From Nitrospirillum amazonense (GTDB taxonomy: Bacteria > Pseudomonadota > Alphaproteobacteria > Azospirillales > Azospirillaceae), in assembly GCF_007827955.1 (NCBI RefSeq), contig NZ_VITR01000004.1:135099-199098 (forward strand): a stretch of DNA of 64,000 nucleotides, given 5' to 3'. Below, in pieces: positions 3,407 through 13,179 of the stretch (its first letter is position 1; each line of letters starts with the position of its first letter). The position numbers and the translations under genes are program-made. Below the pieces are notes generated by a model. The model made no database searches, was not told the DNA's origin, and saw nothing but the letters and a program-made list of their open reading frames with translations.

Positions 3407-3964
3407 ATGGCTGGCAGCGTCAACAAGGTCATTCTCATCGGCAACCTCGGCAAGGAGCCGGAGGTGCGGTCGATGCAGAACGGGGGCAAGGTGTGCAACC
3501 TGCGCATCGCCACCTCTGAAACCTGGAAGGACCGCAACAGCGGGGAGCGTCAGGAACGCACCCAGTGGCACCAGGTGGTGATCTTCAATGAGGCGTTGAT
3601 CGGCGTGGCCGAGCGCTTCCTGAAGAAGGGCTCCAAGGTCTATATCGAGGGCCAACTGGAAACCCGCAAGTGGACGGACCAGTCCGGCCAGGAAAAGTAC
3701 ACGACCGAGGTGGTGCTGCGCCCCTTCCGCGGTGAATTGACCATGCTGGACGGCCGCGAGGGCGGCGGCGGCTACGAGTCGGGCGGCGACTTCGGCGGCG
3801 GCGGCTCCAGCTACGGCGGTGGTTCATCGGGCGGCGGGTATGGCGGCGGTGGCGGCGGCAGCTATGGTGGGGGCGGGTCCTCATCCTCCGGCGGCGGTTC
3901 GCGCGGCGGCTTCGGTGGCGGCGGCAAGCCGGCCGACGATCTGGATGATGAGATTCCGTTCTGA
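3407..3964 (+). CDS. ssb: Single-stranded DNA-binding protein
   Basis: OB-fold N-terminus [42 protein letters not shown], then a Gly-rich tail ending DDLDDEIPF (acidic SSB C-terminal tip). Divergent from uvrA, as in many bacteria. Confidence 0.95.
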
Positions 3965-3996
3965 CGCATCCGTTTCAGCAGACTTAGGAATAAGCC

Positions 3997-4024
3997 AAGG
4001 GCCGCGGTAACGCGGCCCTTTCGC
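3997..4024. terminator. GC-rich hairpin (aagGGCCGCG-gtaa-CGCGGCCctt) between convergent ssb and the 4061-4402 ORF
   Basis: Perfect 8-bp GC stem with a 4-nt loop about 35 nt after the ssb stop, followed by ttcgctg. It could terminate transcripts from both sides. Confidence 0.4.
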
Positions 4025-4060
4025 TGTCAGCGGTTTGATGGGTGCCTCACGCTCACGGCG

Positions 4061-4402
4061 TCACGAGGTGCTGCCCCGTCCCCGGCTGCTGTTGGCCCGC
4101 GTTGCGGTGCCCGCCGTGCTTTCCGACCGGTCGCCCTGCGGGCCGCGCTGGCCACTGCCGCCGGCATCCCAGTCGCCTTTGCCGCCCAGGGCGGTGCGGG
4201 TGCCCCCCTCCTGGGGCGGCGAAGCGTGCTCCGGCCCCGGCGCGCCCGGCTTCTTGGTCGCGGCGTGTCCGGTCATGGCCCATTCGTCCTTGAGGCGCCG
4301 GGTGTCGCTGGCCTCCCCGACGGCGCGCTTCCTCTCCGCCGGGCTGCGGTGATCTGGCTGGGGCGCTGCTTGCCTGGTATGGGTATGGTGGTGTTGTGAC
4401 AT
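4061..4402 (-). CDS. Small hydrophilic, His/Gly/Pro-rich hypothetical protein (113 aa)
   Basis: ATG preceded by a good SD (gatagaGGAaaag-ATG). Third codon positions are strongly G/C-biased like native genes. Low-complexity charged sequence (MSQHHHTHT...GGKGDWDAGGSGQRG...). No recognizable domain. Confidence 0.35.
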   Translation of the reverse strand: MSQHHHTHTRQAAPQPDHRSPAERKRAVGEASDTRRLKDEWAMTGHAATKKPGAPGPEHASPPQEGGTRTALGGKGDWDAGGSGQRGPQGDRSESTAGTATRANSSRGRGSTS

Positions 4403-4502
4403 CTTTTCCTCTATCTTTCAGGGTGGCTCCTCTCCTCTTCGAATGTCCGAAAGGGGCAATGGTTCCCGGACGGCGCAGTAAGAGGGCAAAATAATTTGGT
4501 TT

Positions 4503-5324
4503 TTGTATGGAATGGAGGGCGGTTTGGAAGTGACTGGACTGGATATTATTATGGTAAGTCCTGGGCTTGGCTGGGCCGGTAATGCCAGTGAATATTTTTT
4601 AGAAATATTGGAGAAATTTGGGGATTGTGCCGACTTAATTGCCTTCTCCGGATGGACATTATCTTGTGCTCAGTTCGAAGGTGTGAAAGACAAAATCGCC
4701 GGTCTTTCCAAAAAGAAGGCGCGTGTGGTCTGGGAGGTCGGAGAACGGTCCAAAACTGAAGAAAAGCCGAAATTTGTCGAGTTGTATAGCAATCAAGGTG
4801 GAGATTACATTTGCCATGGGCGGCAGTTTTTTGTTTCTCCAAGGGACCGACAGGGGCGAATTGATTTTATGAACGCCTGTGACGGCCGAGATGGTGAAAA
4901 TAAGCTGGATCGTTGGATAAAAATAAAAGAGAAGGATTTTTTCTGGCTTAATTGTGGGGAGATTTTCTTACTTAGAAGTCCACAGGACGCCGAATTCTCT
5001 TGTCCCCGGGACGACGTCAAGAATTGGTTTGAGGGAATCAAGGAAAAAGCAGCGGGCTTCTTCAATCCCACGCACAGTGAGTTTCAGCGTCGTCATATCA
5101 CGGCGAAGCAGGCCCGCTATCTTTCACAAGAAAACCGCATTTTCCTACGCCCTACCCGACATTATGAAGCAGACCGGAGAGGGGATGATGCTTATCGAAA
5201 GCGTCACCTCATGGTCTATCGGGATTCAAAGGTCGAAAATCCCTCTTTCAGTGAAGATGTGCGTCGAGGAAATGCTGGGGACAGCGCATACATGCTGAGC
5301 AGGTTCAACGTGCCGGTCCCGTGA
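4503..5324 (+). CDS. Hypothetical protein (ORFan) on a low-GC insertion
   Basis: The only long ORF in a ~1-kb stretch whose GC content is visibly far below the surroundings (aatatttttt agaaatattg gagaaatttg...). Lys/Glu/Phe/Trp-rich composition is atypical for this genome. The first ATG is at 4512 (MEGGLEV...); the track start at 4503 is TTG. No domain recognized. Confidence 0.5.
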   Translation: MYGMEGGLEVTGLDIIMVSPGLGWAGNASEYFLEILEKFGDCADLIAFSGWTLSCAQFEGVKDKIAGLSKKKARVVWEVGERSKTEEKPKFVELYSNQGGDYICHGRQFFVSPRDRQGRIDFMNACDGRDGENKLDRWIKIKEKDFFWLNCGEIFLLRSPQDAEFSCPRDDVKNWFEGIKEKAAGFFNPTHSEFQRRHITAKQARYLSQENRIFLRPTRHYEADRRGDDAYRKRHLMVYRDSKVENPSFSEDVRRGNAGDSAYMLSRFNVPVP

Positions 5325-5450
5325 GGTCTGTCTTTCGGCATGGCCATCTCCTAATTCGGAGGATTGCAGGCGACAACCCGACTGATGCTAGGGTGACGGC
5401 CGCGCCTTGGTGATCCTGGGCGTTCCGCGTCGGTATCGAGAGATGGAAGC

Positions 5451-7211
5451 ATGCGCACGCTGACGGTCGCCCTGCACCAGATGAACTACACCACGGGCGA
5501 TTTCCGGGGGAATTTCGAGCGGACCAGGGCCAGCATCCTGGCGGCGGCCGGGGCCGACCTGCATGTCCTGCCGGAATGCGCCGTGGCCAATTATGCCGCC
5601 GGCGACTACCTGCTGGAGGCCGACTATCAGCAGGCCATCGTCCATTGGACGGAGCAATACCGCCTGCTGTCCGGGGAGGTCGGCACCGCCATCGCCGTGG
5701 GTACGCCGCTGCGCGGCAAGGTGCAGGGGCGCAAGATGGGCAATGGCCTGGTGGTGTTCGACCAGGGCCGGGAAGTGCTGAGCCAGTTTAAGACCCATCT
5801 GCCCAATTACGACGTCTTCGACGACGTGCGCTGGTTCGAGGCACGGGATGAACAGGCGGGCCCGGATGCCGAAATCGGCGTACTGCGCTTCGAGGCCGCC
5901 GGCGGCCCCGTCACCCTGGGCTTCTGCATTTGCGAGGACATTTGGTTCGACGATGTCACCCGCGACCTGAAGGCCCTGGGGGCGGAGGTCATCGTCTCGC
6001 TCAACGCCAGCCCCTATGCCATCGCCAAGGGCAATTTCCGCCGTCGCCTGTTCGCCCAGCGCATCGCTGAAACCGGCCTGCCCCTGGTTTATGTCAACCA
6101 GGTGGGCGGCAATGACGAGCTGGTGTGGGAAGGCTGTTCCGCCATCATGGACCCGGCCGGAACCCTGCATGAAATGGAGATCGGCCGCGAGGGCGGGGAG
6201 GTCGTCGCCCTGATCGACCGGGGGGAGGGCTTCCGCCTGGTGGAGCGCAAGGCGCCCGTCCAGCTGACCGACCCGCAGGAGCGCTATCTGGTCGTGGGCC
6301 TGGGCTTGCGCGATTACATCGAGAAGAACGGTTTCCAGGACGTGGTCTTCGGCCTGTCCGGCGGCGCCGATTCCACCCTGGTGGCGGCCCTGGCGGCCGA
6401 CGTGTTCGGCCCGGCCAAGGTCAACGCCGTCATGATGCCGTCGCCCTACACCAGTTCCGGCTCCAACACCCGGGCGGCGGAGTTCGCGGCCGGCGTGGGC
6501 GCGGGCTTCAGCGCCATCAGCCTGCCCATCACCGTGGAGTATGAGGCCGGGCTGGCCAAGTTCCGCAACGCCTTCGGCCGCGACATGGGCAGCCTGGCGG
6601 ATGAAAACCTGCAGGCGCAGATCCGGGGCAACACCCTGTCCGCCATCTCCAACGACCATGGCCGCTGCGCCATCCTGGGCACCAGCAACAAGAGCGAGAT
6701 CCTGATGGGATACGGCACGCTCTACGGTGACATGCGCGGCGCCTTCAACCCGCTGAAGGACCTTTACAAGGCCATTGACGTCTTCCCCATCCTGGAGATG
6801 CGCCTGTCCCAGGCGCGGAACCCCGATCCGGTGTTCGCCCGTATCTGGGAAGGGGCCTTCGGCAAGCCGTTGGAGCCCTATGACGCCCAGGCGCAGGCCG
6901 CCCTGCGCGCCGTCATCGATGTCGAACCCAGCGCCGAGCTGAAGCACAACCAGCGCGACACCGACAGCCTGCCGCCTTATCCCCGGCTGGACGCCGTGCT
7001 GTGGGAGATGGAGGACGCCAAGGAACGCCAGACCGACGCCGAGATCGCGGAAAAGCTGGGCGAGCCGCTGGCGTTCGTGCAGGACATCCGCCGCCGGGTC
7101 CGCCGGGCGGAGTTCAAGCGCTTCCAGTCCCCGCCCGGTCCCAAGGTGCACCGCAAGTCCCCCACCACCAAGGACCGCCGCTTCCCCCTGACGGCGCGCT
7201 TCACCGGGTAG
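5451..7211 (+). CDS. nadE: Glutamine-dependent NAD+ synthetase (N-terminal nitrilase-like glutaminase domain plus C-terminal NAD synthetase domain)
   Basis: N-terminal C-N hydrolase motifs (LHVLPECAV; FKTHLPNYDVFDD; GFCICEDIWF). C-terminal PP-loop SGGADS (VVFGLSGGADSTLVAALA). Confidence 0.9.
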   Translation: MRTLTVALHQMNYTTGDFRGNFERTRASILAAAGADLHVLPECAVANYAAGDYLLEADYQQAIVHWTEQYRLLSGEVGTAIAVGTPLRGKVQGRKMGNGLVVFDQGREVLSQFKTHLPNYDVFDDVRWFEARDEQAGPDAEIGVLRFEAAGGPVTLGFCICEDIWFDDVTRDLKALGAEVIVSLNASPYAIAKGNFRRRLFAQRIAETGLPLVYVNQVGGNDELVWEGCSAIMDPAGTLHEMEIGREGGEVVALIDRGEGFRLVERKAPVQLTDPQERYLVVGLGLRDYIEKNGFQDVVFGLSGGADSTLVAALAADVFGPAKVNAVMMPSPYTSSGSNTRAAEFAAGVGAGFSAISLPITVEYEAGLAKFRNAFGRDMGSLADENLQAQIRGNTLSAISNDHGRCAILGTSNKSEILMGYGTLYGDMRGAFNPLKDLYKAIDVFPILEMRLSQARNPDPVFARIWEGAFGKPLEPYDAQAQAALRAVIDVEPSAELKHNQRDTDSLPPYPRLDAVLWEMEDAKERQTDAEIAEKLGEPLAFVQDIRRRVRRAEFKRFQSPPGPKVHRKSPTTKDRRFPLTARFTG

Positions 7212-7356
7212 GCACCGGCCTGGGCGACCATCATCAGGTGCGCGCCAGCCAGCCGTGCGCCCCTGAGGGTTGCGGTTGCCCCGCCGGCGCGGTAGGCAAG
7301 GGGAAACGCCCAGACGATTGTCCGGGCAACGATAAAGCCGCCAGAGCACGCTCGTC

Positions 7357-8805
7357 ATGACCCAGTTCGAGCCCCCCGTGCCGCCGGAAGTGTCGGCGGC
7401 GGTGACGCCCCTGCCGCCCCTGGACGAGGCGGCGGTCGAAGCGGCGTGCCCTGGCCTGCCGCCACGCGGGCCGGATGAGGCGCTGTTGCCCCGCGTGTTG
7501 GTCCATGCGCGCGACCTGGTGCTGCTGGCCGCGCCCCTGATGCTGACCCGCATCGGGCAGCTCTTCATGCAGACAGTCGACACCGCCATGGTTGGCCGCT
7601 ACAGCGCGGAGGAACTGGCCTATTTCGGCCTGGGCAACACGCCGGTGGGCACTGCCTTCGCCACCGTGGTCGGCTTGATGATGGGGACCATCATCCTGGT
7701 GGCCCAGGCCGTGGGGGCGGGCCGGCCGCACGAGGCGGGGGCCGTCTGGCGCCGCTCTCTACCCTATGCTCTGTTGATCGGCGGCATCGTGGCCATCGCC
7801 TGCCAGTTCGGGGAAGCCTTCTTCCTGCTGACGGGACAGGAGGCGGACATCGCCCACGGCGCGGCGGCGGTCATCGCCATCCTGGGCCTGGGCATGCCGG
7901 CCGCGGTCATGCAGATCACCACCTCCTTCTTCCTGGAGGGCATCAAGCGGCCGTTTCCGGCCATGATTTCCATGATCGTGGCCAACCTGCTGAACTTCGC
8001 CCTGGATTACACCCTGGTCTTCGGTCATTTCGGCCTGCCCGCCCTGGGGGCCATGGGGTCGGCCATCGCCACCACCAGCATCCGTTGGATCACGGCCCTG
8101 GGCCTGATCCTCTATGTCTGGACCATGCGCGACCATGCCCGTTACGGCGTGCGCGGGTCCTTCCTGGAATGGCGGCAGGGACGGGGCCACCGTCATCTGG
8201 GCTACGCCGCCGGTCTCAGCCAGGGGGCGGAGTCGTCCGCCTTCGGTACCATGGGCATCTTCGCCGGCTGGCTGGGGGCTCTGGGCCTGGGGGCCTACGC
8301 CGTTGGACTGAACGTGCTGGCCCTGGTGTTCATGGCGGCCCTGGGGCTGGCGTCGGCCACCGCCGTGCAGGTGGGGCAGGCGCACGGCGCCGGCAACCGG
8401 CGCGAGGCCACGCTGGCCGGGTGGACGGGGCTAGCCATCACCGCCCTGACCTTGGCGGTGGTGGGCGTGGTGCTGGCCCTAGCGCCCGAGATCATCGCCG
8501 GCCTCTATGCCAGCGATCCGGCGCTGATCCGCGTTCTGGTGCCCACCATCGCGCTGATGGCCTGGATCGTGGTGGCGGACGGCGGGCAGACGGTCATGGC
8601 CAGCGCCCTGCGCGGCCAGGGCGACAGCTGGATTCCCACCGCCCTGCATTTCTTCAGCTATTACGGCGTCATGATCCCGACCGCGGCCTATGCCGCCTTC
8701 CATCTGGGGCACGGCATCCTGGGCATCTTCGAGGGTATCCTGGCGGCCAGCATCGTGGCGGTGTCGGTGCTGATGATCCGTTTCCACCTGCTGTCACGAC
8801 GCTGA
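7357..8805 (+). CDS. MATE family efflux transporter
   Basis: MATE N-terminal signature LLAAPLMLTRIGQLFMQTVDTAMVGRYSAEELAYFGLGNTPV. About 12 predicted TM segments. Start uncertain: the N-terminal ~45 aa are Pro-rich. Confidence 0.85.
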   Translation: MTQFEPPVPPEVSAAVTPLPPLDEAAVEAACPGLPPRGPDEALLPRVLVHARDLVLLAAPLMLTRIGQLFMQTVDTAMVGRYSAEELAYFGLGNTPVGTAFATVVGLMMGTIILVAQAVGAGRPHEAGAVWRRSLPYALLIGGIVAIACQFGEAFFLLTGQEADIAHGAAAVIAILGLGMPAAVMQITTSFFLEGIKRPFPAMISMIVANLLNFALDYTLVFGHFGLPALGAMGSAIATTSIRWITALGLILYVWTMRDHARYGVRGSFLEWRQGRGHRHLGYAAGLSQGAESSAFGTMGIFAGWLGALGLGAYAVGLNVLALVFMAALGLASATAVQVGQAHGAGNRREATLAGWTGLAITALTLAVVGVVLALAPEIIAGLYASDPALIRVLVPTIALMAWIVVADGGQTVMASALRGQGDSWIPTALHFFSYYGVMIPTAAYAAFHLGHGILGIFEGILAASIVAVSVLMIRFHLLSRR

Positions 8806-13103: not shown

Positions 13104-13179
13104 GATCCCGTAGCTCAGCCGGTAGAGCACGTGACTTTTAATCATGGGGTCGTGGGTTCGAATCCCACCGGGATCACCA
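13104..13179 (+). tRNA. tRNA-Lys (anticodon TTT)
   Basis: Cloverleaf read manually. Acceptor gatcccg/cgggatc, D-stem gctc/gagc, anticodon stem cgtga/tcatg with loop cTTTTaa, T-arm gtggg-ttcgaatc-cccac, discriminator a, then CCA encoded. Confidence 0.85.

Follow-up and report, generated by a model that had tools for sequence, protein, structure and literature searches.

Enzymes of the nitrilase, or CN-hydrolase, superfamily (PF00795), which includes Nit1/Nit2, the aliphatic amidases, the glutaminase domain of NadE, Lnt, vanin and Nta1, are built around a Glu-Lys-Cys triad that Pace and Brenner are said to have set out in 2001. To our knowledge, nitrilase domains have so far been known in immunity only as partners of reverse transcriptases (RTs). 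They are required components of the defence RT systems DRT1/UG1 and UG5 (DRT11), and UG29 is a defence RT that likewise carries a nitrilase domain (PMC9226505, PMC13436386). In these systems, the domains are C-terminal RT fusions or RT partners, for which canonical catalytic residues were reported (PMC13436386), and immunity is lost once the nitrilase Cys is mutated (PMC13436386, PMC9226505). Here, we describe nitL (a name coined here), a gene located between ssb and nadE in a 64-kb stretch of Nitrospirillum DNA (contig NZ_VITR01000004.1; hereafter the window, with positions counted from its first letter). The best explanation as a whole, to which we assign a probability of about 0.55, is that nitL is a horizontally acquired accessory gene in the variable, defence-prone ssb-orf113-nadE interval, that it encodes a standalone nitrilase-fold enzyme of ~260 aa with a rebuilt active centre, belonging to a tiny and patchily spread family, and that the enzyme may act in genetic conflict, either in anti-phage or anti-plasmid defence or as an accessory to such systems, the last step being the weaker one.

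The GC content, calculated in 300-nt windows, fell from 0.62-0.77 in the flanks to 0.45-0.50 across positions ~4350-5250, compared to a mean of 0.665 for the 64 kb. This patch is the sole strong low-GC island of the window. Only one other 600-nt stretch was below 0.56, a milder dip at ~13.1 kb, which is explained by a tRNA-Lys (UUU) gene at 13104-13179 and the adjoining spacer. The island coincides with one intact open reading frame (ORF) on the plus strand, 4503-5324, which encodes 273 aa when read from TTG 4503. We placed the nitL coding sequence at 4530-5324 (+), starting from GTG 4530 and giving 264 aa, with TTG 4503 as the alternative start. A putative Shine-Dalgarno-like GGAGGG, read from the sequence at 4513-4518 (+), lies 11 nt upstream of the GTG, and its first five bases, GGAGG, are also kept in Nitrospirillum sp. 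BR 11163, the other carrier of the gene (see below). A database entry, a hypothetical protein of Nitrospirillum pindoramense that is also 264 aa long, matches the product at 100% identity. The GC content of nitL and that of its third codon positions (GC3) are both 0.48, compared to 0.66-0.74 and 0.84-0.91, respectively, in the neighbouring genes uvrA, ssb, orf113 and matE. When five core proteins of the window served as the reference, the nitL protein was enriched 2-3.3-fold in C, W, F and K and 1.4-fold in N, and E was not enriched (1.09-fold). The preliminary description of this DNA, made from the letters alone, had reported a sharp GC fall over a single 273-aa ORF, which is borne out by the sliding-window GC and the ORF coordinates, and a foreign composition rich in K, E, F, W and N, which holds for all of these residues except E and extends to C. 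It had also placed the gene correctly between the core genes ssb and nadE, overlooking a minus-strand ORF, orf113, between ssb and nitL.

The orthologous region was taken from eight Nitrospirillum genomes with NadE as the anchor, and the flanking genes were mapped by tblastn. At the uvrA-ssb-orf113-nadE junction, nitL was absent from six of the eight genomes (BR 11828, BR 11164, N. amazonense BR 11880 and BR 12005, N. viridazoti and N. iridis); at these empty sites, just ~240-390 bp separate orf113 from nadE, with no trace of the gene. N. pindoramense, represented by the window, and BR 11163 were the only carriers, and their nitL proteins are 77% identical. The spacer alignment of the eight species delimited a lineage-specific segment of ~870 bp (4468-5339), standing in place of ~45-60 nt of unrelated spacer at the six empty sites. 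The multiple alignment placed conserved anchors on both sides, namely '...GTTCC' ending at 4466 and 'ATGGCCATCT...' from 5340. The earlier proposal of a single-gene insertion of foreign composition is thus confirmed at the orthologous junction; the pattern named beforehand as the sign of an ancient gene, its presence at this locus throughout the genus, was not what we found. The nitL patch is very probably a horizontally acquired single-gene cassette, and orf113 is no part of the insertion; it is ancestral flank.

The cassette had also been described as bracketed by an inverted repeat. Both arms are present (TGTCCGAAAG at 4444 and CTTTCGGCA at 5332), with perfect complementarity over 7 nt only. 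There are 12 equal or better inverted pairs within the same 1.2 kb, and both arms align with sequence of the nitL-free genomes. For these reasons, the repeat is to be regarded as chance, not as the termini of an element. No flanking direct repeat or target-site duplication was detected at the ends of the segment, no recombinase gene among the ORFs from uvrA to gyrA, and no tRNA at the nitL junction. On these three counts (terminal repeats, target-site duplication and recombinase), an autonomous mobile element (insertion sequence, transposon or integrative element) is not supported at the insertion.

Between the two carriers, the synonymous divergence (dS) of nitL was 0.31, no different from the flanking core genes, which span 0.23-0.44, and the acquisition therefore cannot be called recent, as it had been; both copies retain a GC3 of ~0.48. 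The ratio of nonsynonymous to synonymous divergence (dN/dS) was 0.39, with a bootstrap 95% confidence interval of 0.27-0.61, and none of the 2000 replicates reached 1, indicating that nitL is under purifying, somewhat relaxed selection. These values bear on a rival already named in the preliminary description, in which the patch is a non-coding AT-rich spacer or a decaying pseudogene. A gene without a family-library match, upstream of which a scan for sigma-70 promoters gave nothing convincing, invites such an explanation. However, the ORF is intact and under selection in two species, 12 residues are invariant across 38 homologues of different phyla, and the fold is predicted with confidence; selection, conservation and fold together effectively refute this rival, whose probability we regard as negligible.

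The flanking genes suggest a route by which nitL may have reached the two carriers. By core-gene dS, the closest sampled relative of N. pindoramense is BR 11828, which has no nitL: dS to this genome was 0.167 for uvrA, 0.222 for matE and 0.234 for nadE, compared to 0.251 for uvrA and 0.429 for matE to the carrier BR 11163, from which nadE was left out because it is split there. Further, with dS values of 0.21-0.25 for matE, BR 11163 falls into the amazonense/viridazoti clade. Against uvrA and matE, the orf113 gene tree unites the two carriers, with a dS of 0.229 between them, compared to 0.614 from N. pindoramense to BR 11828 and 0.96-1.25 to the amazonense-type alleles. The orf113 alleles are of two very divergent types, dS ~1.0-1.25 apart, the distribution of which conflicts with uvrA, matE and nadE. 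On the simplest reading, the orf113-nitL block would have been exchanged within the genus by homologous recombination, and the species relationships behind this reading rest on three flanking genes, a thin basis. The alternative is that nitL is old in the genus and was lost at least twice. In BR 11163, the nadE gene downstream of nitL is annotated as a pair of genes that overlap (172 and 438 aa; L001 8929-9447 and 9351-10667), and tblastn splits it at ~8400, reflecting either a frameshift (pseudogene) or an assembly error.

Sequence searches with nitL revealed a small family. An exhaustive phmmer search over 1.84 billion representatives gave 10 matches, one of which was a eukaryotic repeat artefact, a profile search over 5.8 billion proteins gave 33 matches, and a metagenome scan added 29 further loci. 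Among the 5.8 billion proteins, nitL has about 40 relatives, in bacteria and archaea. Dereplication at 90% identity left 27 groups, and the residue counts given below come from a 38-sequence alignment. The hosts are mostly low-GC bacteria and archaea (the archaeal assignment rests on a nearby TBP gene), patchily distributed across phyla. The term ORFan, which had been applied to the gene, is therefore inappropriate, since nitL belongs to a small cross-phylum family. No relatives were present in IMG/VR contigs or in BFVD, and a phage origin was rejected on this ground. The Pfam profile PF00795 gave no match at E <= 1 to the window protein or to seven true homologues, PADLOC gave none at E <= 1 for the window protein and none at E <= 0.01 for the proteins P0007, P0008 and P0011, and a profile search of PDB sequences with nitL returned noise only. 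A full-text literature search found nothing on DUF7255, the domain related to a partner described below, or on any family answering to the description of nitL.

The AlphaFold2 model of the nitL protein, with a pLDDT of 83 and a pTM of 0.87, has an alpha-beta-beta-alpha four-layer sandwich fold. Upon searching with this model, Foldseek gave matches at E ~1e-8, with NadE structures among the top ones and an identity of 7-15% to the superfamily. Thus, where no domain had been recognised before, remote comparison and structure prediction give a confident nitrilase-superfamily fold, and we have hardly any doubt that the predicted fold is correct. As nadE lies immediately downstream and the N-terminal domain of its product is a canonical CN-hydrolase, nitL could be taken for a degenerate tandem duplicate of that glutaminase domain, an idea favoured by the shared fold and the rank of NadE structures among the matches. 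We rejected a duplication from nadE and consider it extremely improbable.

To place the active site, the family profile was aligned by hhalign with 30 NadE glutaminase domains, at a probability of 32-38% and in a register that may shift by ~1 residue; the global and local modes produced identical residue pairings. The family stretch D-L-I-A-F-S-G41-W-T was paired with D-L-H-V-L-P-E-C-A of NadE, which puts Gly41 at the position of the catalytic Glu (codons of Gly41-Trp42-Thr43, 4650-4658, +). H-G-R98-Q99-F was paired with Q-F-K-T-H, in which position 98 corresponds to the catalytic Lys (codons of Arg98-Gln99, 4821-4826, +), and W-L-N-C142-G-E with F-C-I-C-E-D, in which Cys142 corresponds to the nucleophile. 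The codons of Cys142-Gly143-Glu144, the nucleophile-elbow motif, are at 4953-4961 (+). This register agrees with the secondary structure of the model at all three sites, where strand 36-39 is followed by G41, strand 94-98 by Q99, and strand 135-139 by C142 and helix 144-147.

Twelve columns are invariant in the 38 sequences, namely F39, G41, T43, E69, Q99, F101, R128, C142, G143, E144, N179 and H182, and S10, D35, T183, L198 and S199 are conserved in more than 90%. At position 98, subject to the same shift of about one residue, the family has K in 18 and R in 6 of the 38 sequences and other residues elsewhere, the window protein having Arg. On this alignment, the family keeps the nucleophile Cys and does not keep the general base Glu. 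Thr43, Glu69, Arg128, Glu144, Asn179 and His182 would lie at the strand ends and in the loops that form the pocket in canonical members. Glu69 (codon 4734-4736, +), which the model places on strand beta-3, is a candidate for a replacement acid/base residue, and His182, in the 'NPxHT' loop (codons of Asn179-Pro-Thr-His182-Ser183, 5064-5078, +), is a candidate general base. Altogether, nitL fits best as a new and so far unannotated branch of this superfamily, in which the active site has been rewired.

If the branch is catalytic, the nitL protein would be an active thiol enzyme, in which Cys142 attacks a bond of the amide or ester type, giving a thio-acyl intermediate, and His182 and/or Glu69 and Glu144 might do the acid-base work of the classical Glu and Lys. 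We put the chances of an active thiol enzyme with a rebuilt centre at even. The main alternative to a rebuilt thiol centre is a non-catalytic nitrilase-fold module, a pseudoenzyme that would act as a subunit for binding, sensing or regulation, perhaps one working with adjacent nucleases. The replacement of Glu by Gly in all 38 members and the variable Lys position are what such a module would show, and there are members that abut nuclease genes or are joined, by coupling or fusion, to a DUF7255-like protein. On the other hand, the C-G-E elbow and seven other polar residues are invariant and, by fold homology, situated in active-site loops, a pattern typical of an active centre, and most members are solo; we therefore think a dead module rather improbable.

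The family gene was AT-richer than its flanks in 21 of the 24 host contexts, as expected of laterally moving cargo. In about 13 of the 27 groups, a defence or mobility marker was present within 3.5 kb, a count that is suggestive only, as it comes without a background rate and many contigs are short. Some loci contain restriction, Abi or other defence genes. In L007 and L008, HsdM, PDDEXK_3, HsdS, Abi_2 and a split HsdR precede the family gene, which lies 26 nt downstream and is followed by AbiEi_2. In L069, the family gene is separated by 1 nt from the end of an upstream PD-T4-3 homologue (GIY-YIG, PADLOC E = 5e-45) and by 5 nt from the IS200-like gene that follows. A type II restriction enzyme of the Sau3AI/MutH type (PADLOC E = 7e-104) lies upstream in L066. 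Other relatives are linked to mobility genes, being directly downstream of a serine resolvase (L002) or beside relaxase and NikA-SSB genes (L014). In L013, a DUF4365-TPR protein and an 8xMP membrane protein are encoded upstream, and further groups have RhuM, ComM, Bro-N, FtsK-gamma or UDG-like neighbours. In the UDG-like case (L081 3679-4933 and L087 3376-4630), a UDG-superfamily protein of 312-314 aa is encoded ~190 nt downstream together with an overlapping 109-aa ORF, a pair that may be another DNA-directed partner module. In the remaining groups, the neighbours are unannotated or of a housekeeping kind; they include Lgt with MutS, a TonB receptor, a sialidase, an EF-Tu-like GTPase and a carbonic anhydrase. 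The genes upstream in L080 and L081 look HNH-like or PD-(D/E)xK-like, and these assignments were dropped as they had no useful E-value.

A DUF7255-like partner recurs in a few of these loci. In L062 and L063, an integrase, a radical-SAM protein and an N6_N4 methyltransferase gene are followed by a DUF7255-like gene that overlaps the family gene by 4 nt, and then by type I HsdR and HsdS. The same overlapping two-gene arrangement was found in an archaeon (L009-L012), and P0011 (L005) is a single 555-aa protein in which an N-terminal and a DUF7255-like region are combined with the family domain. Residues 150-276 of P0011 align at 41% identity (E = 2e-31) with the 190-aa protein that L009 encodes separately, which links the fused and the neighbouring forms. 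Translational coupling or fusion to this partner was seen in 3 of the 27 groups only, and the Pfam scores of the DUF7255-like proteins are below gathering. DUF7255 may be a PD-(D/E)xK nuclease, a tentative lead that comes from reading the motif 'D-F...(I/V)-E-(F/Y)-D-E-x-Q-H' alone, with no PDB sequence match; a ScoMcrA_N domain in P0011, a precomputed-table entry, was not reproduced with Pfam and was discarded. Within L005 6551-11259, the P0011 gene has an HGD-D gene (2-hydroxyglutaryl-CoA dehydratase type) on either side, with a BcrAD/BadFG activator gene coming next, and resembles a single gene dropped into an operon.

Because relatives recur in restriction and Abi islands, on mobile elements and immediately downstream of nuclease genes, a role of nitL in defence or genetic conflict is suggested, with a likelihood that we place a little under even. 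Several observations weigh against it. The nitL protein has no match in Pfam, NCBIfam, PADLOC or PHROGs, and no recognised defence gene lies beside nitL within the window. About half of the 27 contexts show housekeeping or unannotated neighbours only. No partner is conserved family-wide, as judged by BLASTP clustering and the DUF7255 hidden Markov model (HMM), and the Nitrospirillum copies have none; the window contains neither a DUF7255-like gene nor a second copy of nitL. As to the enzyme itself, the loss of the canonical Glu could mean a non-catalytic binding module. Points of this kind also favour an accessory metabolic amidase or acyl-transferase, niche-adaptive and carried on mobile DNA, with no part in conflict: the characterised relatives of the fold are all small-molecule or lipid amidases and transferases, about half of the contexts have housekeeping or unannotated neighbours, and no defence model is matched. 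However, the canonical Glu is lost and the Lys not conserved throughout the family, the contexts showed no metabolic neighbourhood, transporter or regulator that recurs, and the gene is found repeatedly beside genes for nucleases, restriction-modification (R-M), Abi and mobility, and also in fusion with a DUF7255-like region. We consider a metabolic enzyme unlikely while still giving it some weight. A conflict-related enzyme can be specified further as one whose Glu-Lys-Cys centre was converted into Cys-His(-Glu), and which serves as a single-gene or nuclease-coupled anti-phage or anti-plasmid effector on a nucleotide-, nucleic-acid- or protein-linked amide, not on a metabolite; in this full form, the proposal is speculative and probably wrong in some part.

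The junction itself is variable. In the gap between ssb and orf113, BR 11163 (L001 4107-7445, -) and N. iridis (L020 3947-7228, -) carry a gene for a SIR2-STAND(NB-ARC)-TPR protein of 1093-1112 aa, in which PADLOC matched ThsA-type SIR2 and TPR. N. amazonense BR 11880 has ~1.7 kb without a recognisable domain at this place (L017 ~5680-7410); the gap is empty in the window, and the ssb-nadE interval of N. pindoramense holds nitL alone. As the SIR2-STAND-TPR genes and nitL vary there between species, the interval behaves as a variable, defence-type hotspot in Nitrospirillum. Another indel near the nitL locus is the gap between nadE and matE, which is ~145 bp in the window (7211-7357) and ~170 bp in BR 11828, five other species having ~1.9-2.5 kb of extra DNA; in BR 11163, a ShlB/POTRA (two-partner secretion) gene is located there (L001 10809-12521).

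As for the flanks, ssb (3407-3964, +; Pfam SSB, E = 3e-35) is the left core gene, and nadE (5451-7211, +), encoding a glutamine-dependent NAD synthetase with Pfam NAD_synthase and CN_hydrolase matches, is the right one. The 113-codon orf113 (4061-4402, -) is divergent from nitL and encodes a Gly/Pro/Arg-rich product at ~74% GC; it was found by tblastn in all eight Nitrospirillum species and had no match in Pfam, NCBIfam, PADLOC or PHROGs. A small divergent ORF beside nitL that shares the incongruent phylogeny of the two carriers could be the antitoxin of a toxin-antitoxin pair, with nitL as the toxin. Yet orf113 is present in all six species lacking nitL, is not co-transcribed with it, has the native high GC content, and has no homologue alongside nitL elsewhere; as it occurs without nitL, a partnership was ruled out, and we consider such a pair very unlikely. 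A scan of 3900-5600 against Rfam gave one sub-threshold match to the Zeta-pan small RNA (sRNA), at 4400-4425 (-), with 22.9 bits against a gathering score of 56.7 (E = 0.24); this match, overlapping the start region of orf113, was below the gathering score and was treated as chance. To the right of the insertion, the nadE leader (5340-5450, +), which had no Rfam match, is the ancestral anchor conserved genus-wide in the alignments. This ~110-nt stretch is ~95% identical between the two carriers, its core 'TTCGG-GGATTGC-G-CGAC...ATG-TAGG' is kept throughout the genus, and it may serve nadE as a promoter or regulatory element.

If nitL is active, the nitrilase fold would work without its supposedly obligatory catalytic Glu, which would extend the chemistry of the superfamily, and if it is defensive, a compact standalone nitrilase-fold effector would join the immune repertoire. 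These hypotheses are directly testable, as the family is small, 12 residues are invariant, the model is confident, and one genus offers natural strain pairs with and without the gene. In Nitrospirillum, a nitrogen fixer that lives in association with plants, the locus also points to a variable hotspot between ssb and nadE.

Compared with the described members of the nitrilase superfamily, nitL has the fold and the nucleophile Cys in common with them. It differs in lacking a PF00795 match, in its low identity, in the Gly at the Glu position and in the variable Lys position, it adds the invariant Thr43, Glu69, Gln99, Asn179 and His182, and its context appears to be of the mobile or defence type, not metabolic. 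With the PD-T4-3 (GIY-YIG) single-gene passengers, it shares being short, solo, AT-richer than the host, patchy and apparently located in variable hotspots by R-M and Abi genes, whereas its fold is different and about half of the family contexts are without a recognised defence gene. From DRT1/UG1, UG5 and UG29, nitL differs in being standalone, in the missing PADLOC match and canonical Glu, and in its RT-free surroundings, no RT having been found among the annotated neighbours, be it in the window or at the family loci left after dereplication, where only part of the neighbouring ORFs was scanned. What nitL and these RT systems would have in common is a nitrilase-fold module placed in defence islands.

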